From NCBI GenBank assembly GCA_008632985.1, contig QPGO01000047.1, positions 326,608-390,607 on the forward strand: DNA of 64,000 nt, written 5' to 3'. Position numbers and translations under genes: made by a program. The DNA is from Psammoneis japonica (Eukaryota). Each line of letters opens with the position of its first letter. The stretch's first letter is position 1. Of this stretch, positions 10,380 through 44,177 are shown piece after piece. Below the pieces are notes generated by a model that searched no databases, had not been told where the DNA came from, and saw nothing but the letters and a program-made list of their open reading frames with translations.

Positions 10380-10689
10380 GGTGTATTATACACCGGTTGA
10401 CTTGCAGTCAGTTTATATTGCTGCAAGAAGTAACTGAGCTGTTTGTTCTGTTGACCCAGTATGATTTTGACAGCTGATTGTGATCGGATGTGGCACCGCT
10501 GTTTGCTTGGCGGCGACTTGAGAAAAGTGTAATGACGTGGGCATGTAATGACGTCATGTAATATTGCCCTTCTCGCGCTCGCTTGGTTTCGTAGACCCAC
10601 CGGCGCAGCACCGGCCGCGAGCGGTTTTGGTCAATTTTCTGGGTGAGAGAACCGCACAAACTCTGCATCAGCATCAAAAAATCGTGCTT

Positions 10690-12860
10690 CACATTGTCCG
10701 CTGCATTTGCTCAGATCCATTTTTTCAAGGAGAATGATTGAAATGAGTTTCTCTCATGTTGGCCTGGAAGGGCGAGTGTGCACTGGTGGTTTGATCAGGT
10801 GGAGTCGAGGAGGGGTTTGAGGGTTTGAGATGGATCTCTGGTTGTTTTTGAACATGCCCATCTCTGCCAAAATGCCCAACAGCTCTGACTGCCCCAGAGG
10901 GTAGCTTCAAAACTCCTTGTGGGCTGGCCAGCATGCACCTCCAGGTGCTGTGGAGCTTGGAGGGCCCTGTGCTTCTCCTTGTCTCTGCTGCATCTGGCTG
11001 CTGCAGCCATCTGGTGGCGAGAGCATGGTGCCTCCAGCTGCTGCAGAGACTGCCCCCGTGTCATGGAGCACAAAATGTGGGCTGTTGTAGAAGCATCAGA
11101 GCACCGCAGCAGCTGCAGCTGTTTGCCAATGGTGTGGCGGCTCTCAAGCTGCGGGGTCACCACACACAAAGCCACTCTTCTTGGGCTGTTCCCAAGCTGC
11201 GAACAAACTCACAAAGCGAGCAAATGACTGGGGGCAGTCAGCCAGTTTTGTGCTCACTCAATGGTGGTGCAAGAGGAGGTTGCCAAGGTTGAGTGAGCAA
11301 CTGCAACATGCAATCAAATGGTCAAGCCTGATGCATTGTCAAGTGTGGTGGTTGCAAAGGTTGGCTGGTGGTTGCAAGTGGAGAGGAGCCCATTTCCAAA
11401 AGAGGTGCTGTGGAGCTTGGAAGGCCCTGTGCTTCTCCTTGTCTCTGCCACATCTGGCTGCTGCAGCCATCCGGTGAGAGCAAGGTGCCTCCAGCCACTG
11501 CAGAGACTGCCCCCCTCCTGTCACAGAGTGCAAAATGTGGGCTGTTGCAGAAGCATCAGAGCACCAAAGCAGCTGCAGCTGTTTGCCCATGGCATGGCTG
11601 CTCTTAAGCTGCATCAAGCTGCATCCCCCACACACAAAGCTCTTTGTGCTCTTCCTGCACAGTCCAACCAGCTCCACTTTTCCACAACACAAAAGTGCCA
11701 GCCCAGCAAACAAAATTTTCAAACTCTCTCTCTCTCCATGCCAAGAGGAGCATGGTGCATTGCTGTTCAAGGAACAGAAGATTGTGAAAATGTCCTCACT
11801 TTCATGCTGCACAAAATTGGCCCAGCCCCTGATGTCAAACAATTTTGGATCACACTCAAATTCAAGTTCCTTGGGTCAGTGTAAAAACAAAACTTGCTTT
11901 TTAAAGATTTTCTGTTTTGCTGGTTGACAGCAACAAACAAACAACGTGGTGGCAGTTGAGCCATCTCCAGCTTGGCACTCTTTTCTCAGTGCTCTCACAA
12001 AAAACTGGCATGTGTTGAAGAGAGCAAAATGTGAGCTCATTTTGTGAAAATTGTTGTTGGCAACACAGCACAACAACGTGGCATTTGTTGATGTGCGCTG
12101 GTGGTTTTTTGGACTTGGGCACACCACCAAAATGCCCAAAAGTCCAATGAGCAGGGCGGTTGGAGCAATGACCACCCACAGTTGCTTGACACATTTTGTG
12201 GGCAGATCTTCTTGTGCTGTCATTGTGCTCAGTTGCCTCACAACACTTTCCCAACCCACATTGTCCCCAATGACACAACATGCTTTAAAAAATCAAACAA
12301 ACAGGGTCCTCATCAAATGGACCTCACAGGGAGGTGTCCCTGTCAGCAAGTCAAAAATGATGCCACAGCTGCAGAACACTGCAGACAACATTTTTTTGTT
12401 CCTCCAAGCCGCTGCCCCACCCAGTGCCTGAGCCCAAATCACAATCACAAGGCAACCCTGCTGCCCACAACCACAACTTTGGCCCTTGCTGTCTCCCCTC
12501 CCCCTCTCTCTCTCTTCCCCTTCCATCATGTTTTTCTCCCCTTTTCTGCTTCCCCTTCCCCTGCCCTGCCCTGGCCCCAACCCTGCCCCTGCAGATTTGG
12601 GGCAAAACCTGCACCCCACAGCTTTTTGCTCTTTGCAGCTTTTAGACAAACCCTGTGCCCTGTTGCTTTCTGGACTTTTGTGCAAAACCTGTGCCCCGCA
12701 GCTTTCTGCACTGTGGTGGTGGGCATCATCTCTGTTTTCTTTTTGAATCTGGGGGAACACACCTTAAATGACATTTGATGAATCTGGTCCATCTCTGACT
12801 GGAGTCTGGAATTTGATGTGCACTCCAATGTGTCTCCACCACTGCCAAAGAGACAGAGGA
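10690..12860. other. TpA/CpG-depleted block of unidentified eroded DNA
   Basis: Very few TA or CG, strong TG/CA excess, and overlapping Cys/His-rich Tyr-free ORFs in all frames. Normal composition on both flanks. Confidence 0.85.
10943..11612. repeat. ~210-bp direct repeat (10943-11152 and 11403-11612)
   Basis: aggtgctgtggagcttgg...aagctgc present twice. Many differences are TG/CA/TA swaps (ttgtagaag/ttgcagaag, ctcaag/cttaag, ctgc/ccac). Confidence 0.9.
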
Positions 12861-17829: not shown

Positions 17830-18067
17830 AGTTGGAAATGGTGAATTAAAAGTTCAAACACCAAAATTAGATAGCGTGAAGAAGACGTACGCGTCAGCGC
17901 TTGTGTGCTCCACGTGAAGCAACGAAACAGCCGATGGAAGCAGTCATTATTCTCTTTTAACTCTTAGAAAGTATTGGGATAACAAGCTTGTCTATTTTAG
18001 CCTCAGGATCAGACCTTAGAGGACTGAGGTGGCTCTGGAACAGTCACCAGAAGGATAAATTGCAACA
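17830..18067 (+). repeat. 5' LTR (238 bp)
   Basis: (a)gttggaaatggtga...aaattgcaaca aligns without gaps to 23632-23869, with 15 mismatches. Confidence 0.95.
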
Positions 18068-18171
18068 GCCAGAAGAGAGTGATCTCCAGCTGAGAGCTGT
18101 GAAAAGAAAGCAAGAAAGAAAAGAGTCACTCTCACGGCGTGTGAGATGTTTTGCTGCTTTGCCTTTTCATC

Positions 18172-21100
18172 ATGAGTGGAAGAGGCAAAGGTAGAAATGG
18201 CAACAGAAGCCAAGGAAGAGGACCCTCAGGAAGGGGAAACAAGAGTGGCAAGCAAAGCCACAAGGGCACCAATGATCATGTCCACTGTGTTGGAAGTGCC
18301 AAGCAAGCATCTGATTTTCAGATTGCTGCTGAGTTCATCATCAACTACATTGAGAAGACTTATGAGTTTGGAAATGACACTGCAACTGCACTCAACACTT
18401 ACACTCCATGTGACGTGAGTTCTGAGAAGCCGACTTTGCAGGTCAGCTTGACTGGAGATGACAAGGTGGACGCGCCATTGAACAAACAGTGTGAAATTGA
18501 GTTCAAGACAGAATTTGATGCTCACATTAAGAGGACCCAAACTTGTGAGAACAACCTTGTCAAGGCTTGTGCTTTGCTCTGGGAGAGATGTTCCAAGGCC
18601 ATGAAGAACAAGATTCAAGCAAGAGCCGAGTTCCAAACCAAAATTGAAAACGATCCTGTCGAGTTGCTCTCAAGGCCATTGAGGAGCATGCATTGAACTG
18701 CCAAGAGCACAGGTGTGACATGGCTGTCATCTCAGATTCAATGAGAGCGGTGCTGGAAACCAAGCAGAAGGAGAAGGAGAGTCTCCAAGATTGCACCAAG
18801 AGATTCAGGGTTGCAAGGGACGTCATGAAGTCTCACACTGGAGGACCAATTGTCCTCGCCAAGGCAGTGCAAGGCATGTCAGAACATGACAAGCACAATG
18901 CGGATTCTATCAAGAAGTGTCAAGAAAAGGCGTTCAGCCAATTGATGGGTTACATGTGCTTGGAGAACGCAGACCAGCGCAAGTGCGGATCAATTCTAAC
19001 AGGATTGAACACTCAGCAGTCCCTCAAGAACGACCAATGTCCCAAGTCCATTGCAGAAGCCAACACGGTGTTGAGCAACCACACTTTTGACCACGTTGGT
19101 CAGCCTGACAACTGCCACAACAAGAACAATCAAAAGAACAACTCTGACTCCAAGAAACAAGAAGAAAACCAAGAAATCACGCTGTCCTTCGCTCAGTTAG
19201 AAGGCAAGTGTTGCTGCTGTGGCAAGGCCGGACACAATTCCAACAAGTGCTGGGAAAGGCAAGGAAAACCTCAAGCAGAATGGGCCATCAACAAGGCCAA
19301 AGCCAAGCAAGAAGCAAGCAATGCTCAGGCGAGTGACAATGCCAGTGCAGCCAACTCTTCCACCAAAGAATCCACTGGAACAAAATCCACTGTTTTTCAG
19401 GATGGGCTGGCACGCACATCGATGTGTCTCTCTGCCAGGATCAATCTGGCAGCATGAGAGACTGGATTTTATTGGACAACCAGTCCACAACCACAATCTT
19501 CTGCAATGAGAAGCTCGTTGCAGACATCCATCCATCGGATGAAGCCATGCGTTTGCACACCAATGGCAGAGTCCCAGTCATGACACTCAAGGCCACGGTG
19601 CCAGGGTTTGGTGAGACTTGGTTTAACCCAGACGCAATCACCAACATTTTTGCTTGCTCCAACATGAAGAAGAAACACAGAATCACAAGTGATTCTAAGC
19701 AAGACAACGCATTCACCGTTCATCTCCCCAACAAGAAGGTCAGGTTCGAGGAGGACAGAAAAGGGCTGCATGTTTACAAGCCCAAGACAAACGACACTGG
19801 AGCTCAGCTCCAATTTGTGCAGAGTGTGGAAGAGAACAAGAAGTTCTACACTCCACGACAGTTTGAGAAAGCCAAGAGGGCTGGGGAATTGTTGCACGCG
19901 TTGGGAAACCCAACAGTGAACGATCTGAAGGCCATCATTTGCACGAACAGCATCAAGAACAATCCCATCACAATGGAGGATGTAGATTTGGCCGAGAAGA
20001 TTTTTGGACCAGACATTGGAAGTCTAAAAGGCAAGGTCACAAGGCAGAAGCCGGAGCCAGTTGTAGAAGACTACGTGGAGATCCCGAAGGAGCTCATTGC
20101 AGCGCAACACAAGGTCACTCTTTGCCTGGACGGTCTCAAGGTGAATGGATTGCCATTCCTCACTGCAGTGTCACGAAACATTTTTTATCGCACGGCACAA
20201 CCGCTCAAGGACTTGACCCAACCAACTCATCAAGAAGCTCTGGAAGATGTGCTGCGAGTCTGCAACAAGGCCGATTTGAAGGTCACACGCATTTGTTGCG
20301 ACAACGAATTCAGGCCCATTGGGAATGCACTAGAAGACAAGTTTGATCTCAAGATGAACTGCGCAAATGCTCAGGAGCATGTCCCAGAAGCCGAAAGAAA
20401 CAACCGAGTTATTCAAGAACGTGCCAGGGCAGTCCATCATCAGCTGCCATTCAAGCATCTGCCAAAACTCATGGTCGAAGTCATGGTCACCGAAGCTGCT
20501 GAGAAGCTCAGTTATTTTCCAGCCAAGCACAACGTTTCCAAACATTGCAGTCCAAGAATGATTCTCCATCAAAAGAATCTAGACTGTGACAAGAGCTGCA
20601 AGATCACGTTTGGCACTTGTGTGCAAGCTCACAATGACCCGGACCCCAAGAACACCCAAGAGTCACGGACCTTGGATTGCATTTATTTGCGCCCCACTGA
20701 CAGCAACCAGATTGGACATGAGTTGCTGCACTTGCAAACCGGCAAGAAGATCACTCGTCGCAAGGTCACCCCTGTGCCCATCACTCCCGCCATCATTGAG
20801 CAGGTTCATCGTTTGGCTGAAATGAACAAGATGCCCAATGGTCTCAAGATTCAGAACCGCACTGGAACTGTTCTTGGCTTGCAGGAGTGGATTGTGATGA
20901 AGAACAATTTGAAGACGAAGATTGCGATCTAGAAGAAGACATTGAAACTGAAGACGACGAGGAAGAAGAGCTCGGCTGGGGGGAGACTGCAACAGAGTTA
21001 GTCAAGAAGAGCTGCAAGACATAATTCGAGAACAAGAATTGGATGAAGAAGCCAGCCACATCAGTGAAGAACAAGACGAGACTCAAGAAGAAACCTCCAA

Positions 21101-23170
21101 TGATGAGCATCTCGGAGACAATGACGAAGTTGGTTCTCAACCGTCAGATGGCAGTGGAATTTCACAAGAAATCGATGACATGATTGACCACATTGATGAA
21201 CAACAGAGGCTGCTGGAACAAGAGAAGGAACACTCTCCAGAAGTGCAAGAGATCATCGACAAAATGAAAGACCTGGAATCTGATGATGAATCTGGAGAGG
21301 AGCAGAGTGAAACCAAAGAAAGTGTCCAAGAAGAGCCTGTTGCTACATCCAGGGCAGGAAGGACTCTGAAACCTCCAGCTAGATTGGGAGACTGCCAATG
21401 CCATCTACAGACTCAAGCTCATTCACAAGAAGAAGAGCACAGCTTAGAAACGGCCAGAATCATGGCCATGACAATGTGTCAGTGGAACGAGAAGATCAGC
21501 ACGATTTCCACTGATGAAGAAGCACATCAATTTATTCAGACGACTTGCAGCTTGGCACGAGGACTCCAGAAGTTTGGAGAAGAAGGCCACAAGTCGGCAG
21601 TGTCAGAGCTGAAGCAAATCCATGACAGAGTGGCTTTCAAACCCATTCACATCAATGACATGACTCCTCTGGAGAGGAAGAGAGCCATGGAGAGCCTCGC
21701 GTTTCTCACAGAGAAGAGAGATGGGCGAATCAAGTCAAGGTTGTGTGCAAACGGAAGCACGCAACGAGAGCACATGGACCGAGACGAAACCACCAGTCCA
21801 ACAGCATCCACAGAATCCATTCTCATCACAGGAGTGATTGATGCCAAGCAAGGCAGAGATGTTGTGACAGCGGACATCCCGAGCGCATTTGTGAAAACGG
21901 ACATCGAGGTCAAGGATGAAAAGATCATCATGAAGATCCATGGAAGGATGGTGGACATGTTGCTGGAATTGGATCCAGACACTTGCCAGGACTGCATCAT
22001 GTGCAAAGGCAAACACAAGGTTCTCTGTGTTGAAATGTTGAAGGCGCTCTGCGGAATGCTGGTGTCCTCCATTCTTTGTTGCAAGAAGTTCCGCAGAGAC
22101 ATCGAAGGAATCGGATTTGAGATTGATCCTCATGATCCATGTGTCGCCAACCACATCGTGAATGGAAAACAACACACGGTGACATGGCATGTGGACGATT
22201 TAAAGTCCAGTCACGTTGACAGCAAGGTCAACGATGAACTCAAGATTTGGTTGGACAAAACTTGTGCGGATGAGATCGGAAAGGTCAAAGTCACGCGTGG
22301 AAAGAGGCACGACTGCATGGCCATGACTCTAGATTGCTCCATTCCAGGAGCACTGCAAGTTGACATGATGCTTCATGTGCAAGGAATGGTCAAGGAGTTC
22401 TTCAAGGAATTCCCAGAAGAATTGTCGGGTGACGTGGATTGCCCGTGGAGCGAGAAGCTCAACAAGGTGGACGAGACAGCCAAGAAATTAGATCTCAAGC
22501 ATGCTCGGGCATTTTGCACTTTTGTGATGAAGGGCATGTGTTTGTGTGCAAGAGAGCCAGACAGGACATTCAGCCTGGCATTGCTTTTCTCTCCACCAGG
22601 GTCAAGGATCCAAATGAATTGGATTGGCCAAAGCTGGTGAGGCTCATGAATTTCCTCAAGACAACCCAGCTTGATGTCGCAGTCATGTCGGCTGGAGACA
22701 AAGTCATCATCGAGTGGCACACGGGCGCCGCACTCGCAGTCCATCTGGACCATAAAAGTCACACAGGTTCTGCCATGACCCTTGGAAAAGGTGTCATTAC
22801 ATCAGTCAGCACGAAGCAGAAGATCAACACCAGGAGTTCCACAGAAGCAAAAATCGTCGCAGGAGACGATGTTTTGGCAAAGGTCCTTTGGACCAAGCGA
22901 TTTGTTGAAGCTCAAGGTTTTGAAGTCGAGCGCAACATCATGCATCGAGACAACGAAAGTTGCACGAAACTAGAACAAAATGGAAAGGCCAGCTCGGGCA
23001 AACGCACGAGACATTTCAACGTGTCAAGCATTTTTGCATCACTGACCTCATCAAGCCAGGAGAACTTGAGGTTGAGTTCTGCCCAACAGACAAGATGATG
23101 GCAGATCACATGACCAAACCAGTGGTTGGTAAAAAGTTCATCATTGATCGTCAAGCCATCATGAACATCC
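18172..23170 (+). pseudogene. Copia gag-pol, frameshifted and Tyr-depleted
   Basis: Zn knuckle CCCCGKAGHNSNKC, protease WILLDNQST, integrase D..CCDNEF..EHVPEAERNNR, RT TADIPSAF / KALCG / WHVDDLK, RNase H SSTEA..RDNES. Confidence 0.95.
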
Positions 23171-23215
23171 AAGTGCCTGAGATGGTCAAATTTGGAAATG
23201 ACAAGAATCTTGTCA

Positions 23216-23607
23216 GACGCGTTCCAGGTCTAGAGGTGGGACCTCGTGCTGCTGAACTGTGACATCGACAGTTTTTTGAATCGCGTCGTATGTCGCGCAC
23301 GTAGATTTCTACGTGATTTTTTCGATATTTTGTGTCATTTTACGGTACACTTATTGAGCGATCCGTCCAACATCTTTTGACATTTTTTGTTACAGCGCGA
23401 TTCTATAATGTCTTAAGAATCGCGTAGGGCAGGCGCATTTGCAAAAACGTCGAGTGGTGTGAGGCATAATTGTACCACAAACTTGGCTGTTTATTTGATG
23501 TTGAAGACAAATATATCCATTGATTAAATTCTCGTACTACGGAGCTCGCACGTAGAATTCTACGGGCCCAATGTCACACGGAGTCCCACCTAGGGCTGGA
23601 ACGCGTC
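23216..23607. mobile_element. MITE copy A (392 bp) nested in the Copia 3' region
   Basis: TIR GACGCGTTCCAG...CTGGAACGCGTC (imperfect to ~30 bp). 4-bp TSD GTCA at 23212-23215 and 23608-23611. Reverse orientation relative to 59799-60188. Confidence 0.93.
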
Positions 23608-23631
23608 GTCATTGGTCAGCAGGAGTGTGCA

Positions 23632-23869
23632 TGTTGGAAATGGTGAGTTAAAAGTTCAAACACCAAAATTAGATGGCGTGAAGAAGACGCACGTGTCAGC
23701 GCTTGTGTGCTCTACGTGAAGCAACGAAACAGCCGATGGAAGCAGTCATCATTCTCTTTTGACTCTTAGAAAGTGTTGTGACAACAAGCTTGTCTATTTT
23801 GGCCTCAGGATCAGACCTTGGAGGACTGAGGTGGCTCTGGAACAGTCACCAGAAGGACAAATTACAACA
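23632..23869 (+). repeat. 3' LTR (238 bp)
   Basis: tgttggaaatggtga...aaattacaaca, with TG...CA ends. Confidence 0.95.
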
Positions 23870-23899
23870 GCAGCAAACTTCCAACAAAGGGTCCCATCA

Positions 23900-25450
23900 A
23901 GCATTGCCAAAAAGGGAGCCAAATGGCCCTCGTTGATTCCGGCATTCCTGTCAATCTCATGGCACACGCCGACAAACAATTGGAACGACTTTGCACCCAT
24001 TGTGTCCGTTCTCCTGCTGTGATGGATCATGTTTGTGGTTCTCCATTGGGTCGCAGGATTGTGGCTGAAGACATGGCCAGGATTGAGACATCATTGTTTG
24101 GACATCAGCTGCTTTGACTCCTTTGACCCAAATGACCTCCCAATCTCTCTTTGATGCAAAGTCTTGCCATGTTGTGCATTGATGGTGCCACCGGCATTGA
24201 CAAGCAGGCAATCCTTGGAGCACTGTCCAAAGAGGAAGATCCAAATGGCCCCAGCACCTGGGTTTTTGAAACTGCCTCAGCTGGTCATGTCAAAGACCTC
24301 TGCAAGTGGGAGATGGGTGAGCCCAACAAATTCATGGGGAGTGCAGATCCTGTGTTCATGCAAGAGCGCCAGAGTTGTTGGTGTGTGTGGAAATCAAAAC
24401 CACTGGGTGCACTCTCATCTGTGAGGGCCTTTTTTGGCAATTCTCACTGACGGGTTGACAACATCCAGAAACAGGTCTCCAATGTTGTCTCAGTGCATGT
24501 CTCTGCTGCAGCTGGCAGCTCAGGCTTCTTGGGAGTCTTTCCCAGCTACGACATGCAGTGCAAGAGCAGAAAAAAGCAGCCACGTGGGAGTTTTTGCAGC
24601 AAACTCTTTCCTGGTTTCATGCTCTTGTTCCTGAGTGGTTTGTGGCAGCATTGTCTTTGCTCAAAACAGTCTTGACAGGCCTTTTTGCAACATTTGTTGC
24701 TGACATTTCTCATGCCAAGCTCAAATGCCAAAGAGCTTGCCATCAGGTGCCAAGCTCTCAGCACTTGCAGTGCCATTTGCTCATTGTTTTGCTGCAGCAC
24801 TGGGCCCACAAGAGGCAACATGAGCCATCTCTCTTGAGTTGGGTTGGTCTCTCAGGTGATTGCAAGTTGCCTTGAGGACCTCAACATGGGGTGCTTGGCC
24901 TCCTTGGCTTGCTCAACTTCCTTGTTTGTGTGTCAGCAGGATCATTTCTGCCCCTGACTTCTGAGTTGAATTGCAGTGCTGGGTGCTGTTGGGTTGTCTC
25001 AACAGAGCTCTCTAAAACTCTCCATTTCTGGTTGCAAAACAAAGTGAGTTGACTCTGACCAAGCAGCAATTGTCAAATGTGTGCACAATGCATTGACACC
25101 AACAAAGGTTGCAACATGATGATCAAAATGACCAAAGAAGGACACCTTGACACCTGACACAAGGTGCAGGCTCTGACCACACTTTGCCAAAATGTGATCT
25201 TTGCATGTCCACACACTGGTGCTGAAACAGGTGCACAAGCAAGGCAAAATGCAAGTGCCTGGCAATTTGCCACAACCTTGTTTCAAAGAAACAACCACCC
25301 CTTTTCCACAGCACATGTTGTTTCTCCTGTTGTGGCAGAGGACCCCATTTGTGAACCTCCATTGGGGTTGCAGGCTTTGGCTTGGCTTCTTTGATCCAAA
25401 TGATCTCCCAATGTCTGCAGCTTCAAGTCACAAACTTGACAATGCACACA
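23900..25450 (+). pseudogene. Unidentified eroded coding-like sequence
   Basis: Protein-like fragments with an internally repeated motif (FDPNDLP at ~24122 and ~25390, each preceded by SP..PLG). Family not recognised. Confidence 0.3.
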
Positions 25451-25929
25451 TTTAGAATCCATCCAAGAACTGAGCAGCTTTTGTGCCACTTGTCTCATTT
25501 CTGATGCCGTGGAAAAAAGGAGAGGAGCTCAAGCTCAAGAGAGCAGTGCCCCGCCAAGGACCAGCCAGATGATGTGATGTGTTCACTGAGTCATCAGCAA
25601 AGGAAGCTTTCAAGCATTTGCAGTTCCAGCTCATGGGGGTCAGCAATGTTTTCAAATCATTGTCCTTGGAATTTGCATGGTCCTGGGAGAGAGAGCACTG
25701 GACATTTTGGGTTTCCAGCTCCTCCTGTCCCCATGTGTGCCACACTGCTGGTGCTGCATGCTTGCTCCAGTCCCAAGCAAACAATGCTCTGATTCCAACA
25801 TTCTTTTCAAAATGTCCAGAAATCTGTGGAAAATCTAGAAGGAAAACCAAGCTTGCTGTTCACCAGAATGTCACGCAGGTCGCAAAAAAGCAAAGAAAGA
25901 AAATGTGAGCAGCAGACAGCAGCATTTCT

Positions 25930-26760
25930 GATCTTTTGGCGAGCTCAGAGCTCAAGTGCAGGTTGACTTTTGGTGCCCACGCAGACATCCCTGCAATTCC
26001 AGCTCCTGATTGTGGCATCACGCCACTCAGCGGCTCTTTCGAAACATGCAGCAGGCAGTCTCAAGATTGTTGCAAGCACTTCAAGAGAAATGAGCATGGC
26101 ACAAGACAAGGACAATGTTCTTCCTGCAAGCAGTGTTTGATGCGAGCGTCATCATGAGTGTTCAACACCAGGTTCTGGGTGTTTTCTGCAGCAGGCCCTT
26201 TTTCTCACTTGTCATTTGTGTGCTGTTGGACATCGTGGGAGGATGTTTTTGAGAGATTGTCCAAGATTTTCTTCTTGACAGAAATTTTTCGTGTGTTGTG
26301 GTTGTCAGGAGAGGTGGCACTCAAGCCCAAAGTCACCATTGACCATCCGTGCAAAAAGGGTCACCTCAGTCCTTGCTTTCACGGTGAACACACCCTGAGG
26401 CATTGTCCTTCGGGCAAAGAATGGTGCATTGCCTGCAAGCTTTGTGAGGTGGCCTGTCCCACACAAGCCATTGCAATTGATGCTGAAGAGCATGAGGACG
26501 GAGCTTGTTGTGCAACGTGTTGTGACATTGACGCGACAAAATGCATCTGCTGTGGTTGTGCAAGTCATCACTTCTGATCAGCTTGATTTCTGTGTGATTG
26601 AATTGTTGATCTCACTTTTTAATCACAGTGCCAGGAAGCTTGACCAGTTGATGCGATTGTGCTGGAGGGACCCAACTTCAAATTTGCTGCTGAATTGAGG
26701 GACATCTGAGTGGACTGGTGGGGCAATGGGGTGCAAAAAAGTGACGGACAGATGCGTGCA
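25930..26760 (+). pseudogene. NDUFS8: Complex I TYKY subunit (NDUFS8/NuoI) pseudogene with intron
   Basis: KPKVTIDHPCKKGHLSPCFHGEHTLRHCPSGKEWCIACKLCEVACP...DIDATKCICCGC, then CQEA*PVDAIV..EGPNF after intron 26560-26628. Matches the family pattern [37 protein letters not shown] with Y->C/H and R->C/H/W changes. Confidence 0.95.
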
Positions 26761-28099
26761 TGCTGGGGGCACATGCAGACACCATGGAAGAGTGACTTTT
26801 GGCAACAATTTCCAAAATCTTTGGTCCTGTTCAAAGTTTTGTGTTGTGTGTGTGTTTTGTCAGCAGGGCTGTGCACTCTTCTTCATCAGTGTCTAAACCA
26901 AATGTCTGCAGAGGTGCGCACCATTGATGCACGTTGAATTGGTGATTTGGCACAGATTTTCAACGATCGCGCGTCAGTTGAGACCCAATCAGCACTCATC
27001 ATGTTGACACTCAAATGACAGCTCTTGTCATCTGCACTCAGATGAATGAATGTCCTGCACTCTAAAGAAAAGTTGCGCAGCGGTCTGGGGAGCTGGTCAA
27101 ATCTGACAGCAAAACTGCACGCCCGTCACTTGGAGAGAGTCAATTTTTGTGGAATTTTCAACACCAAAATGCGGCTCACATCTCCTCCTTGGCATCTGTC
27201 ATGATGGGACAAAGGCTTTGTTTGTCATGCAGTGGAGCACAAATGCAACAACTCCTGTTGACCACTTTTTGGAGCTTGTCCTTTGTTTTTTCAAAAAGAG
27301 CCTTGGAATCAAGAAGAGAAATTGCTGTTGACAATGATGCAAGTGTGTGGGCATTTTTGCTCATTTCTTGCCAATTGCAAGCATGTGCTTGCAACAATTG
27401 CTCAATTTGTCGTTGGTCTTGAAAGTTTCATTGTGAAAGAATGTGATTGAGTCACATTGCCATGGCATCAGAGACCGGCGTGCAAAATCCTTGTCGCCAT
27501 TGTCTCATCCACACAGTTCCACACAGTTTTAGCACCAGGCCTGCAGTGATGCATGCGTTTCATGCTTGCTGAAATTGGGCAAAACTTTGTCACTCATTTG
27601 GCGGTGACGTTTCTTCACAAGATTCAGCCCAACCAGCGCAACCAAGACACCACTGGAAAGCTGAGAAAGTCCTCTTTCGATCTGCTGCAATGAAAATGAC
27701 ATGATGACAGTTCTGTGCATGCACACTTCATTCACAAAAAATTCAGCCAAATGTGCATCAATGGCGCACACCTCTGCATGGGTCGAAATGTGTCAAGCCA
27801 AGTCATTCTTCCGAAGTCAGTGACAAAGAGGAAAGTCAACATTTTCTGTTCAAATGACACAACAGTTTTGTGCCAAGAAGTGTGTGATTAAATGTGAAAA
27901 TGTCAATGAAGTGACAATTGCACTTGAGTTGAATGGAGAAAATGCCGGGACAAAAAAATTTTGTCCTGCGGGTGCAGCGCGGAGAAAGCCAATTAGAAAA
28001 TGTCACCACAAAAATTTGGAAGTGGATGATTTTCTCTTTTTAGATGACACTCACTTGCCTCAATGCACAGAGTCACTGCTTCACACAACAAATCCTTTC

Positions 28100-28221
28100 T
28101 GAATTCAAGTCAATGTTTCTGATGACCATCACCTTGTGGAATGCCGGGTGTTTTTTCAACTGAATTCAAATCAATGTTTGTGATGACCACCACCTTGTGG
28201 AACACCGGGTGTTTTTTTAAC
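28100..28221. repeat. 61-bp tandem duplication
   Basis: tgaattcaa.tcaatgttt.tgatgacca.caccttgtggaa(tg/ca)ccgggtgtttttt occurs twice. Confidence 0.9.
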
Positions 28222-28394
28222 TTGCCCCACATTTTTAAATTGATGCTCCCTTCCTGAATTCAATGCAGTGTTTCAGCCACCCATCACCTTGTGCATTTCT
28301 GTGTGCCAATTGTTGGCTTTTTGGAGGAAATTGTTTCCTGCAATGACAACACAACAACAAGCAAGGCAATGGCAAAAGCAATGGCACTGCTTGC

Positions 28395-29790
28395 ATGATG
28401 GCTGCGACACTCAAGGAACAAAAAGGGGCTTTGTGACTGGCCAAAACAAAACAACAGCAGGGGAAATTGTGTTGATGTGTTTGCCATTGCCAGCTGGAGC
28501 TTGGTTGTTTCAGCTCATTGTGTCAAACCAACATGTTGAAAACAGCACAAGCAGCTTGATTGTGCTGGAAGCCACACTCATTCTGTCTCCAATGATGTTG
28601 GCTCAGATGGATTGTTTGCATCTGTGAGGACTCGTGACAGTGGTGCTCAATTTTCTCATTGCACCTTGGCTGTGGTTTGGGCAAGGTCTGGGTGCACCTG
28701 CATGAAGGAGAACAAAAAGCGGCAAACCACTGATCCATTGCCAGTGAGCAGCATGAAGAAGAGTTGTTTGCATTTTTTGACATGCTGTCAATTGAGCATC
28801 CTCTGCTTGACCTTTGTGGCAATTTTGGCTGTGGACTTTCCAGCTTTCCTTCAAAGATTTGCCAAAACAGAGGTTTCAGGATGTGGGCTGATGGATCTGG
28901 ATGCTGGTTTGTTCATGGTGGCTGCCGGCATTGTGTGGGCTTGAGCAAGAAAAAGTGACAAGCAACCAAGCATGGAAATGATTGGAAAAATGCTGCCTCT
29001 TGTGGTCATGGGAAGCACGCGTCTTGTGACAAACATGGCAGTGGAATGCCAGGAGCACACATCCAAGTGTGGCATTCACTGGAATTTCTTCTTCTCTGTT
29101 GTGGCAATGGCACCCCTGGGATCAATGCTGAGTTTGCCAAAGAAGTGGCAGTCTTGCAATTGGGTTCTTGCCTTGGTGACAATGACAATGTGTCAAGTGT
29201 TGCTTTCAAAGTTTGGGCTGTGAGACCACATCATGAGGCACCAAGATCCTGTGTCAAGCCAAATGAAACTGACGTGCTTTGCAGCTTGTTTGCGGCCAAT
29301 CAAGAAGGCATTCTGGGGTGCGTGGGTCACATTGGTGTCTGCATTTTCAGCAAAGATCTGGCTCACTTTTGCTTGTGGGGTGGCCACAGCAAGTCACAAG
29401 GCACTGGGCTTGCGGCATGCTTGGCAGGATTGTGGTTCCTTCACTGCACACTCACGCACATGCTTGACGTCTCTGCATCCCAAAGAATGGCCAATGTCAG
29501 CTGCTGCATGTGGGCCACTGTGAAAACAGCGACAAACAAAACAATGCCGCCCATCTTTGACTCTGTCAACAAGAGCGGGTTGCTGATTTTTGTTGTTGCC
29601 AATCTCTTGATGGGTCTTGTCAATCTCTCTGTCAACATGTTGGAGGCAAGTGATGTCAAGGTGATTTGCATTGTTGTTGCACACCTTGGTGCAGTTGGGG
29701 GATTTGCTCTGTTGGCAGATGGCATCCTTTTGCCTTTTCTGCAGGCCAGCTTTGAACAAAGTCTGCACATCATGAAAAGAAAAAGGTCAA
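28395..29790 (+). pseudogene. PIGW: GPI inositol acyltransferase (PIG-W/GWT1) pseudogene
   Basis: AILAVDFPAFLQRFAKTEVSGCGLMDL, ECQEHTSKCGIHWNFFF (cf. EYQEHxxEYGxHWNFFF), ANQEGILG, SQRMAN, NKSGLLIFVVANLLMGLVN. Stops and frameshifts present. Confidence 0.93.
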
Positions 29791-30149
29791 ATGATGTGAA
29801 TTGGTTTTTGTCATCTCCACACGGAATGCGTGCAACTTGCTTCACTGGAGTTCTTGGACAACATTTGCATGGAAACAAAATTGGCAAGCACAAAGCAAAA
29901 TTGAAAAAAACCAAAGTCCTGAATGGACCCTTCTGACAGACAAGAACTCTCTGCTGAGTCAATGCCACGCCTCTCTTCCACAAGAAAAGCCAAACACCTG
30001 GACTGGAATTGGCTCCCAAGAATTGCCGAGGCATCTCAGGTGCGCAAAGGCATCCATCCCATGGCCTTCAAGAAAAGCAATGAAGAGAAATTGATTGGTT
30101 TTTAAATTGGCGCAAGAATGCTTGCAAACAGAACAGACCACAGAGCAGT

Positions 30150-31550
30150 GTGCACAACAAACAAGAACAGCAGGAATGTCAGATTTGCCATCCATGATCA
30201 TCATGCTCAGGTCACCACCAAAGTGTTGAGTGCAACTCCTTGCAGTGGGCAACCCAAAACCCAAACCTGCCAAAGGAGTGTCAGTGGATTGATCTTGAGA
30301 ACCACCAATCATGTTCTGTTGCACCTTTGCATCTGCTGTTGTAAAGAGACACTTTAAGACTCGTTTGGCTTGTGATCAAGGCATTCCACCATCCTCATTG
30401 GATGCCTTGGTGACAGTGTCTTCATTCTCTGTGTTGTTGGCAATCACAATTGTTGTGGGTGGAAGCTCATCAAGAGTGTTGCTGTGTGTGACCATGGTGG
30501 CCTTCATGGCATTCTCAACAAGCTCCAGCAAAACACAGTGCAAATTTGTTGGAATCCACACACAAAGGTCAAGTCAAGTCTCCCTGCAATGTCAACATCA
30601 AGCGGGGCTTTGCCACATTGTTTCTTGCAAATCATGGTTGCACCACTGGCAGCAATTCACACAATTTCTTTTGGCGAAGTTTTTGGACAAACAGCACCAA
30701 TGCAGTCTGGAATGGGCTCATGTTGCAGTGCCAAATGCTGCCCAGCCAAGACCCGAGTGCCAATCTGACTCGTGTGGAACCAATCCTGAAAGGAGTGCAT
30801 CTCTTGCATCAGATCAAGCTCAAAGATTCTGTCTTCACCACACTTGCCCACCAATTCTCCCTTTGCAACAGCTGCTTGCAATTCAAAAGTGCCCCCAGCC
30901 ATTTCTGCAAGTGCCCTGGAATGTTTTTCATGCAAGGCCTCTGGGTGATTGGCAAAATGAGCTTCATCCTGGACTCACTGAATTTCAGGCCAATGGCTCA
31001 GCTTGTTGAAGGAGTCTGTGTAAATCTGCTTGACTGCCTGAACTGCTGGCATGTTGCTTGTCATGGGGGGCTGGTCTAAATCAGGAATCCCACAAGCAAA
31101 TCAAACTGGATTTTTTTTCTCACAAAGCTTGCCACCAGTGCAATCTTTTTGAAACTGTGCAAAGAAAAGTTGCGGCGCTGCTTCAGCATCACAAAATGAG
31201 TGCATGGCCATCTGCTCTTGTGCAAGCAGTTGTTGCAAAATGGCCAAGTCTTGCTTCAATGTTGCCAATCCTTGGTTTGTCCATCTTTGCCATCCTTTTC
31301 ATCCCAGCTAAAATCTCCTTTTTCTCCCTTCTTCTTTGACTGCAAGCATCTTTTCCATTGAGATGCCATCCTTGCAACTGAGGCTCCAATGTCATCATCA
31401 ACGTGATGATGGTTGTTGGCTGGGTGTTGCTTTGGCAGGAATTCTGTGTTGGGCGTTACAACGGAATCAGATTTCCCGCCAAAATTGAAACTCAAAACTT
31501 TGGATTTTGACAAAACAACATTTTTGGTGATGCGTTCCTCAGTTGCTGAA
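30150..31550 (-). pseudogene. PDK: Mitochondrial pyruvate / branched-chain ketoacid dehydrogenase kinase pseudogene
   Basis: FQDWFHTSQIGTRVLAGQHLAL (cf. FLDRFYxSRIGIRxLxxQ), IPTNLHCVLLELVENAMKAT (N box), SNEDGGMP, PLAGLGFGLPTARSCTQHFGGDL. N-terminal boundary uncertain. Confidence 0.9.
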
Positions 31551-32099
31551 GCACAGCAACAGATTGTGATGAAGTCAATGACTGAACACAGTCAAGGATT
31601 TTGAAATGGTGGCTGTCAGTCTTTAGACACATTTTGAACAGAAAAAAATGTTGCACCCTGCAATGCAGAACACAGTTGAATCTCTTTCTTTGGGATGCAA
31701 AGTGTGTTTTGAATGAAATGTTGGCTGGTGAGTGTGGCTGGTGCGCTGGCACAAGCACACAAGACCCAGCATCATGCTTCACACACCACACAAAAACAAA
31801 GAAGTGCTCATCATTTTGACAAGAGACAAGAGAGGGAGAACAATGACAATGGAAGCAATGTTGCTGGTTGAGATGGAGAGGCAAAGGCTCTGGACTTGAC
31901 AGGCAAGTAAAGACTGGCTGCAGTGCTGAAGAGTGAGCTTCATCTCACATTTTTCTTGCTTGCAACGACAGCAGATTGTGAGCAAAATCCACTCTTTCTT
32001 GCTGCAAAGGCACGCACTGTGCACATCCTCAGTGGCACATTCAATGCTTTTGCTCCTGACTTCTTGGCTCATCCCTTCATTTCTCTTTTCATTTGCTCA

Positions 32100-34830
32100 G
32101 GTTTCAGATCTGTTGCCACTTGCAGCATGCTGTGTTTTCAGAAGAAGGTCGTTGCATCAAGGACATCACAGGCTTGACTTTGGAAGATTTTTTGAAGCTG
32201 TTGGAAGAGAGCAAGGAAGAAGCCACGCAGGAGGCAGTGGGCAAGTTGGCTCAAAATGCTGTTTCAGGGTGCTGGAATCAATTTGGCACTGCATGGCCAA
32301 AGTGCAAGGAATGCATTGGATGCACCACCAAGAAGTCAAGGCTGCATGGCTCCGCTGTTCAGGGACTCTTGTGATGGGAGGGGCAGCAAGTGATGTTCTT
32401 GATGTGCCAAATTGTTTGCCCTTTCCTGTTGCTGACAAATGATGCTTCATTGTTCTTTGTTTAAATGGGCACGGGCAAAGGAATCCAGACTGGCACTGCA
32501 GTTCACAAAAGTTGGCCAATGCTTTGACATGGGAAGCCGGGTTGCTGCTTGCAAGAGTGTGGCTGTGGTCAAGCTGCCATGTCATTTGGCCTTCAGTGGA
32601 AACACAGCTTAAAAATTGGTTCAGATGCAAGCAAAACAAAATGAACAATGGCAATTTATGCGCAAAACATGATGTGGTTAGAAATTGCAGTTGTGGCTCC
32701 CTTTTAACACCAACAAGACAGCATTCAATCTGGGAGAACTGTTGCACTTTAACTGACAGTCAACTGCTTTTCGAGTGGCACTCCTGCTTTGACAGTGGGG
32801 AGCTGAGCAACTTCCTAGATTTGCCACAGTTTGCTCAGTTTGCATGTGAAATTTTGTCTGGCCCTGCTTTCCATTCATGTGTGACATGCTTCTGGGCATG
32901 TGAAAAATCCTGCTTTGCATTTTCCAGAGAGGAGGCCTGACCCAAATGACTGAGGTCCCAGATGCATTGTCGATTCCGGGTCCATGGGGCCTGTCTTGCT
33001 GGCGAACATTTGGATCATTTGTGTTGGCAGCTTCATCTGCACACATGGAATGACAGTGGGCCTTCTTGGCCTCATTGGAGACTTGACAGCATTGATGCTA
33101 AAATGGGACAAAGGCTGATGGGGCAGCCCCGCCTTTCAGTCTCTGGGACAAGTGAGCCACCCTGTCATTTCCGGCATTTTGGGTGCCCTCCCTCAGCTGC
33201 ACTCACTGGTGTTGCATTGGCGGTGGTGTTTTGCACCCTTTGCTCCTTTGTTGGGTGTTTGCAATGTGCTTGTGTGGGGCCAACTGGCTCAGATCTCTCT
33301 CATGTCTCTGGGTGCAGTTTGGGAACTCTTCAGGTGTGCTGCGGGGGTGTGCGCGGATGCACTCCAGCCCTGGGTGGGACTCCGTGAGACATTGGGCCCG
33401 CAGAATTCTACGCGCAAGCTCTGCAGTGTGAGAATTTAATCAATGGATGCACCTGTCTTCAACATCAAATGAACCGCCAAGTTTGTGGTGCAATTGTGCT
33501 GTGCCTCTTGCAACTCAATGTTTTTGCAAATGCGCCTGCCCCACACGATTCTTAAGACATTGTAGAATCGCACTGTGACAAAATGTGTCAAAAGTTGTTG
33601 GATGGATTGCTCAACAAGTGCACCGTGTAAAATGACACAAAATGTCACCAAAATCACGCAGAATTCCACATGCGTGGCATGCAACGAGATTCAAAAAACT
33701 GTCAATGTCACAGTTCAGCAGTGCAAGGTCCCACCTGGACCTGGAACTTGTTTGCATCAGTTGCCACCTCTGCCAGATCTGCTTTTGGATGCTGCTCCAG
33801 GGATTGAGGTGTTGCACCAGATTTTTCTTTCCTTGTGGTGGCACTGGGATGGGGGGTCCTTGCCATTGTTCTGATGGCAGCCAACCAAGGAACAGCAGTT
33901 GGGGGCACATGATGGAGCACTTGTCTTTGTCAAAGGCACATTGCCACGAAACTCCAGACAACAATGCATTCATGCCCCCCCAAAAAATTGGCCACATGGC
34001 TGAAAAACTTCAGAAAGTTTGCAACCATTGATGCACTCAGCCAGGTGAGGTGATCAGCCTTGCTGATTGCTTTTGGGTCCCCAAGGCAGCGCGTTTTGAA
34101 CCACAAGACAGCAAACTGTTGGAGGCAGTGGAGGACATTGGTGTGGTGTGCAATGGCACCTCCTCTGGGCCAAATGGGCCCTGTGGGCCCCTTCCTTCTT
34201 TTTGCCCACTGCTTCCTCCATGCTTGGGTGTGTGACAGAATCCACATTTTCTGTCAACCTTGATTTGGGCAATGTGGTTTTAAACTTCTTCATGAACCCT
34301 AAAATTTGGCCTTGCGCAGGGGCTCATCTCAAGGTGGCAGGTCAGGAGCACTTGACTGGGCTGTTCATGGGAATGAGACCAAGTCCTTGCCTTGCCATCC
34401 AGGTGTGTCACTGGGCTGACAAAGCAGCCCACGGGATCCTCTTCGGAAGTCAAACCCCATGGGGTTTGTTTCGAAGCCCCAGGCAATGAAGTGTAACTCT
34501 CACACAAGAGCCACAGTGGGAGATGTCAAAACCTTTGCTGATTGTCTTTGGCATTGGGGTTCAGAGCAAGGAGAACGCATGGCAAGCAGCACATCAAATG
34601 GCTGCTGGTCTGCAGCATTTTGGTTCACAGAATGCCCCGTGCAAGCTCAGCCCTCCATCCCAATGTGAGACAGGAGCTTGGGTGGGCGGCATCTTCAGGG
34701 TCACAGACAAGAAGGTAGTTCAGACAATTGCACAGGCCAAGTGGGACAAGGGAAAGAGAATGGCTTCTGAGCTGCTCTCGAAGCACAAAAACCAACCGGA
34801 AGGGTTCCTGCCCTCATTCAACTTCTATGA
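32100..34830 (+). mobile_element. DIRS/Ngaro-like retrotransposon RT remnant, hypermutated, interrupted by MITE copy C
   Basis: WWHWDGGSLPLF, DCFWVPK..DIGVVCNGTSSG, LWAPSFFLPT, NLDLGNVVLNF, LFMGMRPSPC, GDVKTFAD, LQHFGSQNAPCK..GAWVGGIF..KWDKGK. Family assignment is from recalled motifs; left boundary uncertain. Confidence 0.75.
33356..33752. mobile_element. MITE copy C, heavily mutated
   Basis: Colinear with 59799-60188. Eroded TIRs gatgcactccag / ctggaacttgtt. Flanks cgcg and tgca are compatible with an eroded 4-bp TSD. Confidence 0.9.
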
Positions 34831-38100: not shown

Positions 38101-38858
38101 CATACACACAGGCCTTCATCTTGGCGAGCTTCGACAGCGAAGTCAATTTGTTCGTCAACGGCTAGCTTGGTCTTGCTAGGACTTGAGGACTTGCGTAGCT
38201 TTATCATGCCGGCCTTGGGGTCTTCTTCGGGGGTCTTCTTGGTAAGCAATAAAGATCTGTCGGGCTTCACTCCCTTGATTCCTCCTTTTGGTGCCCCACG
38301 TTCTTTCTCTTGACTCCCGGCGCCCTTCTCGTTGAGCATGTCCAATTGCCTTGTAGTCGCGTTTCCGGCTGTAGAAAAAAGCCGAGAATCACTGGTGCAG
38401 CCAAGACAGCGAAGGGTTACTCTGTAGAGATAGGTAAACTCAATACGACGAACATCCGTTTGCCTCGTTGCAGCAACACGGCGTATGGCGTTTTCTCCAA
38501 CATCAAGTCCAGAGGTGACTTCTCTATCAATGGTTACGTTGGCAATGACTCGAAAACCTCCATCGTTGCCACAAGAGATTCTAGCCGTTTGGTTGTACGA
38601 CGTGGCAAAGGCGTCTTCAAGAGCACTGATCTCTGCTTCTGTCACGTTGAGAGGCTCACCCGTGTGCTCCACCAAGACGAGAATCTCGAGAAGTCGCTCG
38701 GTGGCATTTTCGCACAGATTGTCTTGGAGCTCTCGTGCTCGAAGGAAGGAAGGCTTGCCCTTGTTGGCGTTGTAGGATGCTTTTGCAAGTGGCAAGCGTT
38801 GGCATGCCCAGAAGAGGGCGAAAACGGGAAGCAGTCGCCGCAACTTGGGGAGGGACAT
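35175..38858 (-). CDS. Secreted mucin-like Thr/Pro-rich protein (~1227 aa)
   Basis: Signal peptide, REL/RQL/RRL motifs, two homologous Cys-containing N-terminal domains, TTPAPTxA repeats, a VWA-like ALFVDDSGS segment and a C-terminal beta-rich domain. Confidence 0.9.
36545..37165. repeat. 24-bp coding tandem repeat (TTPAPT[I/V/E/A][A/G]), roughly two dozen units
   Basis: ggagctggagtcgtcgcaatcgta-type units inside the mucin ORF. Confidence 0.95.
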
Positions 38859-41049: not shown

Positions 41050-41340
41050 GGAGACAGTGGGCAATTGCCATTTTTTTTTTGCGATGTCTTGCTTGCTGAG
41101 CGGTGTGCAGTGTCGTTGTGCAAGGGATGATTCCTGCAGTGCAGGGACAGCTGGACAATGTGACCAAGTTGCGCACTCTCAACTCAACTTGTCATCCAAT
41201 GACTTTTCTGGATTGTTCATCCCAACAGAGTTTGCCAATCTTTTGAATCTAGACAAGCTCATGTTGCACATGAATCAGATTGAGGGATCACACCTGCAAA
41301 ATTGGAAAAGACTCAAAAAGCTGCACAAGTGTGCTGACAG
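41050..41340 (+). pseudogene. Leucine-rich-repeat gene fragment
   Basis: GVQCRC then QLNLSSNDFSGLFIPTEFANLLNLDKLMLHMNQIEGS, fitting the plant-type LRR consensus LxLxxNxLxGxIP. Confidence 0.75.
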
Positions 41341-41669
41341 CTGACACATGACATTGCTTTCATGACACGGCCACCACTCACTCATTTGCTTGTTCCACCC
41401 ACTTGCGCTGTTGGGCCATTCCACTGGCTGTGTTTTCCATTGAAAAGAACATGTCACTTGGCACATCAAATTCAGATTTTTGTGATCTGATGCCGCGATG
41501 ATCTGCGATCTGTTCCTTTTTGCCCACAACATCTCAGTTTTTGCCACTCAGGCAGAGCCTCATTCTGTCACACAGAAAAGGCACAACACACAGCCACAAG
41601 GCCCAAACACAACTCTCAGCAGCTCACGCTGGCTGCACTTTACACAGTGTTGGCAATGCACTGTGTTGG

Positions 41670-43475: not shown

Positions 43476-44177
43476 AGTTGTGGAGTTGTGACTGGCACAA
43501 TGTAAGGAGCTGCCAAAAATGTCCCAAACCCATCACAGCATGTGTTGCACATGGATGTTTGATGACAATGGCTTTTGTGCACATTTTGGCTCAAGTGTGG
43601 CTGCAGCATGTCAGCAAGTTGGCCACTGATTTTTTCCCCAAGAAGTGGGAGCAGAATCTGTTTCTTGAGGCTGGAGGCAGCTGGCACTTGTTTTTGCTGG
43701 GGACAACAAACAATGCTGCCAAAATCCCCACTCTGAGCATGTGTCAAAGACTCAATGAGATGGCAAAAGAGAAAGGCACTTGGGACACTCCTGCTGTGCT
43801 CATGTCATGATCAAATCAATTGATGAGCCAGCTGGCAGCTGGCGGCACATTGTCTGAGCAGATTTCTGTGCCATGACTGCTGCAAAAAAAGCAAAGCAAA
43901 GCCAAAACAGCACCTGACAGTGGCTTTGCTGATTGTGTTTGATGATGTCATCTTGGAAAGCAGTGCACAGCATGGCAAGCACAAAAGCAGCCACATTTGC
44001 TCATGGCCTTTTGCTCTGTTGGCTCCCTGCACTCTCTTCGTTGGACAAACTGTTGAGCAACTGGGCCAAGACACAAAAACAGTTGTCAGCCCAGGCTGGT
44101 GAGAAGACAATTTTTTGAGGCACTTTTGTTGTGCTTTTTCCAGCTGTGCTTTTTCAATGGATGCTGCACCCCCCCCC

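Follow-up and report, generated by a model that had tools for sequence, protein, structure and literature searches.

A 64-kb stretch of the genome of the diatom Psammoneis japonica (64,000 nucleotides of the forward strand of contig QPGO01000047.1, assembly GCA_008632985.1, positions 326,608 to 390,607; referred to here as the window) contains a dead Ty1/copia-type retrotransposon whose two long terminal repeats (LTRs) differ mostly at sites where one repeat has TA and the other has TG or CA. We propose that these differences are scars of a DNA hypermutation that is confined to discrete domains and erases the dinucleotide TpA, matching the signature reported for the alga Bigelowiella natans (Mettrop et al., bioRxiv 10.64898/2026.01.13.699255), and we assign this reading a probability of roughly 80%. 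Under it, TpA would be converted at the DNA level to TpG or CpA, CpG would decay more slowly within the same domains, and the window would preserve a long-term, near-saturated trace of a B. natans-type process in a different algal lineage. The LTRs would differ almost exclusively at TA versus TG or CA because the element adjoins the edge of a domain in which nearly all TA has been erased.

Gapless alignment of the two LTRs (17830-18067 and 23632-23869) gives 238 columns with 15 mismatches, exactly the tally reported in the first-pass annotation of this DNA, and the mismatch classes are those that it gave: six TA/TG (LTR positions 44, 130, 144, 170, 189, and 233), five TA/CA (59, 82, 119, 151, and 227), one CG/TG (63), one AA/AG (16), and two transversions (A/T at position 1 and G/T at position 148). 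The even split between strands that it described is likewise borne out, with six TG and five CA products. Transitions able to make or destroy a TA are available at 63 of the 238 sites, and the binomial probability that these sites receive 11 or more of the 12 transitions is 4e-6; in a control set of eight LTR-like pairs from related copia elements, all on metagenome contigs of other organisms, the TA class makes up 21 of 81 single transitions (26%), which is the share expected by chance. At the 11 TA-class sites the TA state is found nine times in the 5' LTR and twice in the 3' LTR (positions 82 and 233). If the original TA set is taken to be the 15 places with TA in either LTR, then nine have been lost from the 3' LTR and two from the 5' LTR (Fisher P = 0.02), an asymmetry that we attribute to position relative to the domain edge, the 3' LTR lying inside the domain and the 5' LTR at its margin. 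Loss of CpG from the 3' LTR is slower, at one of eight compared with nine of 15 for TA. The repeats are 238 bp long and 94% identical, the 3' LTR is of the TG...CA type, and the 5' LTR begins with AG. The AA/AG difference at position 16 runs in the same direction as the transitions outside TA and CG in the old copy of a transposon-like repeat described below.

The LTRs adjoin a much larger compositional feature. Two-state segmentation of TA counts per 100 bp, using parameters that we chose, together with a dinucleotide profile, identifies six TpA-depleted domains that occupy 28.0 of the 64 kb, leaving 36.0 kb of normal DNA (Table 1). Pooled observed/expected (o/e) ratios in the depleted DNA are 0.07 for TA, 0.32 for CG, 1.69 for CA, and 1.70 for TG, compared with 0.59, 0.99, 1.15, and 1.14, respectively, in the normal DNA; GC content is alike in the two (47.9% and 48.4%). 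The ratio of TA to AT in 2-kb bins is 0.00-0.17 wholly inside depleted domains and approximately 0.5-0.85 in normal DNA, and some 2-kb stretches have no TA at all. The domains end abruptly, over about 100 bp. At the left border TAs remain dense as far as 18056, inside the 5' LTR, and become sparse beyond it (at 18192, 18346, and onward); at the right border the transition lies between 34716 and 34826. One depleted domain (approximately 18.07-34.8 kb) takes in the element interior, the 3' LTR, and the 11 kb of host-gene duplicate that follows on the right.

TpA loss runs ahead of CpG loss throughout: domains with a TpA o/e of 0.12-0.15 still hold a CpG o/e of 0.5-0.75. Repeat pairs inside the domains show many double differences of TG against CA, as would follow if each copy had resolved an old CG or TA on its own. 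The sequences that have been hit include transposons, tandem repeats, and a host-gene duplicate, and no viral genes were seen in the window. With regard to duplication, the copia family has multiple copies and there is a diverged second version of the 11-kb block, but the young copies of a very high-copy repeat are untouched. The depleted DNA also contains many open reading frames (ORFs) of 90-325 residues in all six frames, for example in 24000-34800 and 39300-46100; because there is no TA the stop codons TAA and TAG are impossible, and long ORFs arise in dead DNA.

The element itself is a dead Ty1/copia copy with a reverse transcriptase (RT) remnant in its hypermutated interior. An exhaustive search recovered 9316 homologues of this remnant with E values up to 0.001, and a weak, sub-threshold match to SH3_retrovirus upstream of the RT (E = 0.022), the only sign of an integrase, fits the copia gene order. 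The element has no recognisable primer-binding site. Its summed word depth in a public sequencing run is 20-35 times that of neighbouring unique DNA; this is not a copy number, but it shows that the copia family is multi-copy, and contigs of the public run X1 contain rearranged copies and joints inside the family.

The change runs from TA to TG or CA, that is from A:T to G:C on either strand, with TA and CG as the old states. This polarity comes from four independent tests, using the RT of the element, the host-gene remnants, a repeat family, and diverged contigs in public reads. In the first, the RT remnant was compared with 29 homologues of ordinary composition. At least 70% of these share a Tyr at each of ten alignment columns; nine of the ten are covered by the remnant, which has Cys in six, His in three, and Tyr in none. 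Control residues are largely kept, including 3/3 Trp, 6/6 Lys, 15/17 Asp, 12/14 Gly, 9/11 Arg, 7/11 Phe, and 12/19 Leu. Codon usage has the same character: the 1771 codons of five copia ORFs include 10 TAY, 64 TGY, and 67 CAY (Y, pyrimidine), whereas the 4627 codons of five ORFs in normal DNA include 115, 81, and 100, respectively.

The second test uses the TpA-free block to the right of the element, which contains remnants of three host genes (Table 1). When the TYKY/NDUFS8 pseudogene is aligned with its structurally solved Arabidopsis counterpart (PDB chain 7ar7_I), four of the five Tyr residues read His, Cys, Cys, and Cys, and eight of eleven Arg residues read Cys, His, or Trp, the products of CGN changing to TGN or CAN.

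For the third test we used a repeat family resembling miniature inverted-repeat transposable elements (MITEs). Two young copies are islands of normal composition inside depleted domains, and an old copy lies within the TpA-free block. Members are flanked by 4-bp target duplications (GTCA and AGGA), and an empty site for the young copy at 23216-23607 is seen in another copia copy in run X1. At places where the two young copies are identical, 47 changes are private to the old copy, comprising eight TA>CA, eight TA>TG, ten CG>TG, seven CG>CA, eight other transitions, and six transversions; this copy has lost 16 of 21 TA and 17 of 27 CG. Both strands are hit evenly, as they are in the LTRs, with eight TG and eight CA products from TA. 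TpA accounts for 16 of the 24 non-CpG transitions, and the remaining eight are all A>G or T>C, which may reflect off-target action of the same process. Two of the eight private changes in the young copy at 23216-23607 are TA>TG. The summed word depth of the family in run X1 is approximately 133,000, compared with about 70 for unique DNA, and the few short contigs of run X3 all lie on this repeat alone. A scan of metagenomes with a conserved 28-mer of the repeat gave no matches.

The fourth test draws on public runs X1-X3, which derive from one sample in one study. Contigs from run X1 reproduce the block, with no differences over 1732 bp and eight over 5471 bp. For parts of the three gene remnants there are further contigs whose identity is only about 84-85%, and one of these contigs, from run X2, skips a 71-nt GT..AG stretch in the manner of a spliced transcript. 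Among the best-supported 40 of 1323 places where reads differ from the window, 14 lie within 26036-26388: the window has TG or CA for CG in the diverged contig at six and for TA at two, with one in the reverse direction, two other transitions, and three transversions. The block is thus a gene duplicate that bears an intron and has been hypermutated, the same genes being present as well in a better-preserved version that is apparently expressed. Contigs of run X2 gave no exact cover inside the depleted domains, from which we draw no conclusion; one run X2 contig ends loosely near 17736, with an 18-letter piece that is absent from the window.

Taken with the LTR comparison, these results uphold the proposal of the first-pass annotation that the LTR changes arose after insertion, in DNA, and on both strands, since the same signature is present in the element interior and in adjoining DNA that was never retrotransposed, including an intron-bearing duplicate of host genes; its argument against RNA editing and RT error is strengthened by the same observation. 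Its premise that the LTRs were identical at insertion is unproven for this pair, for which no target-site duplication was found. The annotation did not give the direction of change, the extent of the depletion (28 of 64 kb), the unequal losses of the two LTRs, or the domain edge as the cause of that inequality. The warning that LTR divergence would inflate the insertion age also proves justified: the raw divergence is 15/238 (6.3%), but only three of 192 sites outside any TA or CG differ (1.6%).

The bases that flank TA strongly influence whether it survives. We counted the TAs that survive in depleted DNA, and those present in normal DNA, by strand-collapsed tetranucleotide (R, purine). RTAY sites number two in depleted and 423 in normal DNA, a survival per kb of 0.6%, while one-sided sites (RTAR/YTAY) survive at 10% (55 and 713) and YTAR sites at 43% (79 and 231); TTAA alone reaches 76% (36 and 59). 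The difference between RTAY and YTAR is highly significant (Fisher P = 5e-30). A one-strand TAY rule for which base changes was tried and rejected, with five sites agreeing and four disagreeing in the old MITE-like copy, and three of each in the LTRs (scored by hand). Gains of tetranucleotide products are confounded by CpG decay and by the native composition of the element.

As to mechanism, the chemistry is probably that an ADAT2/TadA-like deaminase converts adenine in DNA to inosine, and the same enzyme would perhaps convert C to U at CpG. The targeted domains are presumably transcriptionally silent chromatin lying between active genes. The process appears to have been chronic or episodic rather than a single burst: TpA losses, judged by o/e against the normal value of 0.59, are approximately 90% in the block and 80% in the element interior, 60% in the 3' LTR, and 13% in the 5' LTR, and these graded values suggest accumulation over time.

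A number of observations sit less comfortably with domain-confined hypermutation. All of the domain results come from one window, so that everything rests on 64 kb, and run X1 may be the data behind the assembly of this window and hence not independent of it. The left edge of the depleted domain coincides almost exactly with the junction between the 5' LTR and the interior, which is odd for a chromatin edge. No target-site duplication of 4-6 bp was found by eye at several choices of LTR boundary (the flanks are ttgtt before 17830 and gcagc after 23869), and the element may thus be a recombinant of two copies whose LTRs are perhaps not sisters. The flanking bases predict loss but not which base changes, a misfit with a simple single-strand deaminase motif. 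Finally, CpG is lost along with TpA here, and the term 'CpG' has no occurrences in the accessible text of the B. natans preprint.

The alternative that we take most seriously, although we consider it unlikely, is that the element was assembled by recombination, a young, unmutated copia copy having provided the 5' LTR and an old, mutated copy the rest, with the same mutational process at work. The LTR differences would then partly predate the present structure, and the LTRs would not be a sister pair. Such a chimera would account for both the position of the left edge at the junction and the absent target duplication, and it finds further support in the abrupt change of TpA density between LTR and interior and in the rearranged family copies and joints in run X1 contigs. 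However, only three of the 192 positions outside TA and CG sites distinguish the LTRs, the 5' LTR carries two TA losses of its own, and little weight attaches to a missing duplication where one flank has been hypermutated.

A second alternative retains DNA hypermutation of the domains but changes its chemistry. The thymine of TpA could be modified or oxidised to 5-hydroxymethyl- or 5-formyluracil by a TET/JBP-type enzyme and mispair with G, yielding T>C. Oxidised thymine mispairs, the observed outcome is symmetric on the two strands, and sensitivity follows the duplex context RTAY rather than a one-strand motif. We nonetheless regard this as rather improbable: the available text of the preprint describing the same signature favours an ADAT2-like deaminase, and the activity on A and C reported for amphioxus ADAT2, in the part of that article available (PMC10354150), could cover the loss of both TpA and CpG.

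The depleted domains occupy the space between apparent genes, as would be expected if a genome-wide neutral bias removed TA and CG, with selection alone preserving them in genes. There is very little to recommend this explanation once codon positions are considered, because TpA in the eight long ORFs of normal DNA has an o/e of 0.62 where it spans codon positions 2-3 and 0.55 where it spans positions 3-1, and these ORFs use NTA codons freely. TpA is thus kept at synonymous places, which argues for a regional process, and purifying selection on proteins is not the reason that genes keep TA. The sharpness of the borders (about 100 bp) and the normal composition of the young MITE-like copies and of the 5' LTR are also at odds with a neutral bias.

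A depletion that is nearly complete and confined to blocks could in principle be a sequencing or assembly artefact, such as modified bases misread within domains, and we attach even less weight to this. Contigs from a public run reproduce the block at a word depth of approximately 60-70, the pseudogenes also contain a premature stop, an extra codon, and frame changes, and TA and CG are retained at the corresponding sites of a separate, diverged contig.

Two further processes have hardly any standing. Fungal-type repeat-induced point mutation (RIP), or decay of methylcytosine outside CpG, would turn CpA/TpG into TpA and make the 5' LTR the mutated copy; taken alone and unpolarised, the LTR comparison fits, TA against CA or TG being the classical RIP dinucleotide class, but such a reading is refuted by the direction of change, since all of the polarity tests give TA as the old state and the affected DNA is TpA-poor rather than rich, with GC content unchanged. 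A-to-I editing of element RNA, or RT errors, copied into DNA would show the 5'-U/T preference of ADAR/ADAT editing that is discussed in the available preprint text, but the changes lie on both strands, the LTRs are not identical to one another, and the signature is also found on an intron-bearing gene duplicate, on tandem repeats, and on a DNA transposon copy, so that for the block at 23.9-34.8 kb it is refuted.

Table 1. Features of the window; coordinates are counted from its first nucleotide, and o/e denotes observed/expected.
Feature	Coordinates	Strand	Remarks
Depleted domain	10601-12800		TpA o/e 0.06, CpG o/e 0.18; internal repeats
5' LTR	17830-18067	+	Almost unmutated; 13 TA (o/e 0.68, as in left flank); 8 CpG; at left edge of TpA-depleted domain
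Ty1/copia-type interior	18068-23631	+	Hypermutated; TpA o/e ~0.12, CpG o/e ~0.5; ORF remnants in several frames
Depleted domain (copia interior)	18101-23200		TpA o/e 0.12, CpG o/e 0.50
RT remnant	20952-22640	+	RVT_2, 32.3 bits (Pfam cut-off 31.6)
Young MITE-like copy	23216-23607		392 bp; ~30-bp terminal inverted repeats; GTCA target duplication; normal TpA and CpG
3' LTR	23632-23869	+	Partly mutated; 6 TA (o/e 0.34); 7 CpG; within depleted domain
Depleted domain	23801-34800		TpA o/e 0.05, CpG o/e 0.23
TpA-free block	23870-34800		40 TA in 11 kb, o/e 0.05; CpG o/e 0.23; diverged duplicate of host genes
TYKY/NDUFS8 (complex I) pseudogene	26158-26709	+	71-nt intron kept; in-frame TGA in exon 2
GWT1 (glycosylphosphatidylinositol-anchor acyltransferase) pseudogene	28540-29936	+	Three frames; no Tyr codon; Pfam GWT1 on three ORFs; aligned to 8xij_A
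Branched-chain ketoacid/pyruvate dehydrogenase kinase remnant	30657-30974	-	Pfam BCDHK_Adom3, E = 4.5e-10; PDB matches
Old MITE-like copy	33356-33747	-	Mutated; within TpA-free block; used to polarise changes
Depleted domain	39301-46100		TpA o/e 0.05, CpG o/e 0.21; 92-bp tandem repeats and assembly gap
Depleted domain	59201-59800		TpA o/e 0.15, CpG o/e 0.67; part of 59201-62500, which is interrupted by the second young MITE-like copy
Tandem repeat of 217 bp, three copies	within 59201-62500		
Second young MITE-like copy	59799-60188		Normal composition
Depleted domain	60201-62500		TpA o/e 0.14, CpG o/e 0.75

The normal domains contain several long ORFs of their own. One encodes 1955 residues and has 35 matches, of which those with recognisable names are all from pennate diatoms (Cylindrotheca, Seminavis, and a Bacillariaceae bin) at 32-35% identity. 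Another, at 46206-47843 on the forward strand, codes for a GT10 fucosyltransferase whose best match is 57% identical and whose best named relatives are opisthokont (a filasterean-labelled EukProt entry, Glomeromycota, and animals) and not diatom. A third, at 35175-38882 on the reverse strand, encodes 1235 residues with no Pfam matches and includes, at 36.3-37.3 kb, approximately 40 tandem copies of a 24-bp (8-residue) unit with 55% GC and a strong GC skew. Rfam identified no family in the 64-kb window. The run of 109 N at 44178-44286, between a C-run and a T-run in a depleted domain, is probably an assembly gap at a homopolymer.

The signature is also present in other public sequences. Ten of the best 150 public representatives of the RT homologues are nearly free of Tyr, at no more than 0.9% (median 3.3%); these are P0209, P0228, P0246, P0272, P0163, P0271, P0248, P0264, P0176, and P0284, from Logan, ENA, and JGI records. 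Their residues at the conserved-Tyr columns are 33 Cys, 24 His, and 6 Tyr, in patterns that vary from copy to copy. A search for related loci with an alignment of the Tyr-poor RTs recovered 79, nearly all with ordinary TpA and none on the contigs of the ten Tyr-poor proteins; a single locus, L006, is clearly depleted, and L024 has one low 1-kb window. L006 (positions 1-1500), a copia RT from a microbial-mat metagenome, has a TpA o/e of 0.06-0.13 with a CpG o/e of approximately 0.8, and the 275 residues of its RT match include 2 Tyr, 12 Cys, and 9 His; it is a case of TpA erasure without CpG loss.

If the process operates throughout the P. japonica genome, this would be a second, distant algal lineage with TpA-erasing hypermutation, making it a candidate for a widespread defence or a mutator linked to silencing. 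The combination of saturated domains, sharp edges, the RTAY rule, and several time markers (the LTR pair, the young MITE-like copies, and the gene duplicates) would make both the targeting rule and the enzyme amenable to testing. There would also be practical consequences for annotation: LTR-divergence dates and repeat-age landscapes would be biased, here by about 4-5 fold (6.3% raw compared with 1.3-1.6% outside TA and CG), gene finders would be misled by long ORFs in dead DNA, and homology searches would be weakened, the RT scoring only 32 bits in Pfam. We suggest tentatively, and as a possibility short of an expectation, that a TpA-erasing DNA-editing defence is common to distant algae of the stramenopile-alveolate-rhizarian (SAR) group, including chlorarachniophytes, diatoms, and the sources of the Tyr-less copia ORFs, and that it acts on any silenced DNA, duplicated host genes among them, with a preference for RTAY and perhaps with one ADAT2-like enzyme responsible for both TpA and CpG. 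Were this so, it would be a counterpart of fungal RIP with the opposite polarity.

Comparison with known systems places the feature close to only one of them. APOBEC3 resembles it in being a host-inflicted transition hypermutation of retroelements, but produces G>A on one strand, in GG or GA context, on cDNA prior to integration, and would not make the LTRs differ on both strands. ADAT2/ADAT3, TadA, and ADAR share a preference for a 5' U or T beside the edited A, although their known natural substrates are RNA and the changes here are in DNA; an ability to deaminate A as well as C in DNA is reported for amphioxus ADAT2, in the available part of that study (PMC10354150). Decay of methylated CpG explains the CG>TG and CG>CA component but cannot convert TA to TG or CA. 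Diatom transposons are CpG-methylated and many diatoms have the RID-related DNMT4, whose function is given as unknown, according to the accessible portion of PMC9998398. RIP in ascomycetes is alike in several respects: it is a transition hypermutation with a dinucleotide context that acts on repeated or duplicated DNA with sharp borders, mutates copies independently, kills genes, and inflates LTR ages. However, RIP, which depends on a RID-type DNA methyltransferase, changes C to T at CpA, creating TpA and moving composition towards AT, whereas in P. japonica TpA is destroyed at constant GC content. A requirement for repetition is not evident here, the high-copy young MITE-like copies being untouched.

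The remaining system is that of B. natans, a chlorarachniophyte, for which the accessible text of the preprint (10.64898/2026.01.13.699255) reports mutation-accumulation lines in which two integrated viral regions have a mutation rate approximately 1000-fold that of the remaining genome. Nearly all of the changes are A>G or T>C; all are at TpA and give TpG or CpA, and they occur in some lines only. The B. natans genome also contains 124 TpA-depleted clusters enriched for CpA and TpG, RT and DDE domains are enriched among TpA-poor ORFs, and the authors propose an ADAT2-like DNA adenine deaminase. As far as that text goes, the two systems share A>G and T>C changes at TpA, both products, confinement to regions, and clusters with TpA depletion and CpA/TpG enrichment. 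We found no description of TA>TG/CA hypermutation beyond this preprint, and none in diatoms, in full-text searches of openly available papers and of the main text of preprints. We regard the feature as real and rare, and of a kind described once before. The differences are nonetheless informative. B. natans hypermutation was measured as new mutations, whereas in P. japonica we see a long-term trace in sequence alone; depletion in P. japonica is near saturation (o/e 0.05-0.12) compared with a rho of 0.45 for the B. natans viral region in the available text, and the DNA that has been hit in P. japonica comprises an LTR retrotransposon together with tandem repeats, a copy of a DNA transposon, and a host-gene duplicate. 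The words 'flanking', 'trinucleotide', and 'diatom' do not occur in the accessible preprint text, whereas a preference for RTAY over YTAR is clear here. The P. japonica window adds to the known kind a new host lineage, duplicated host genes as targets, a coupled loss of CpG, and a flank rule.

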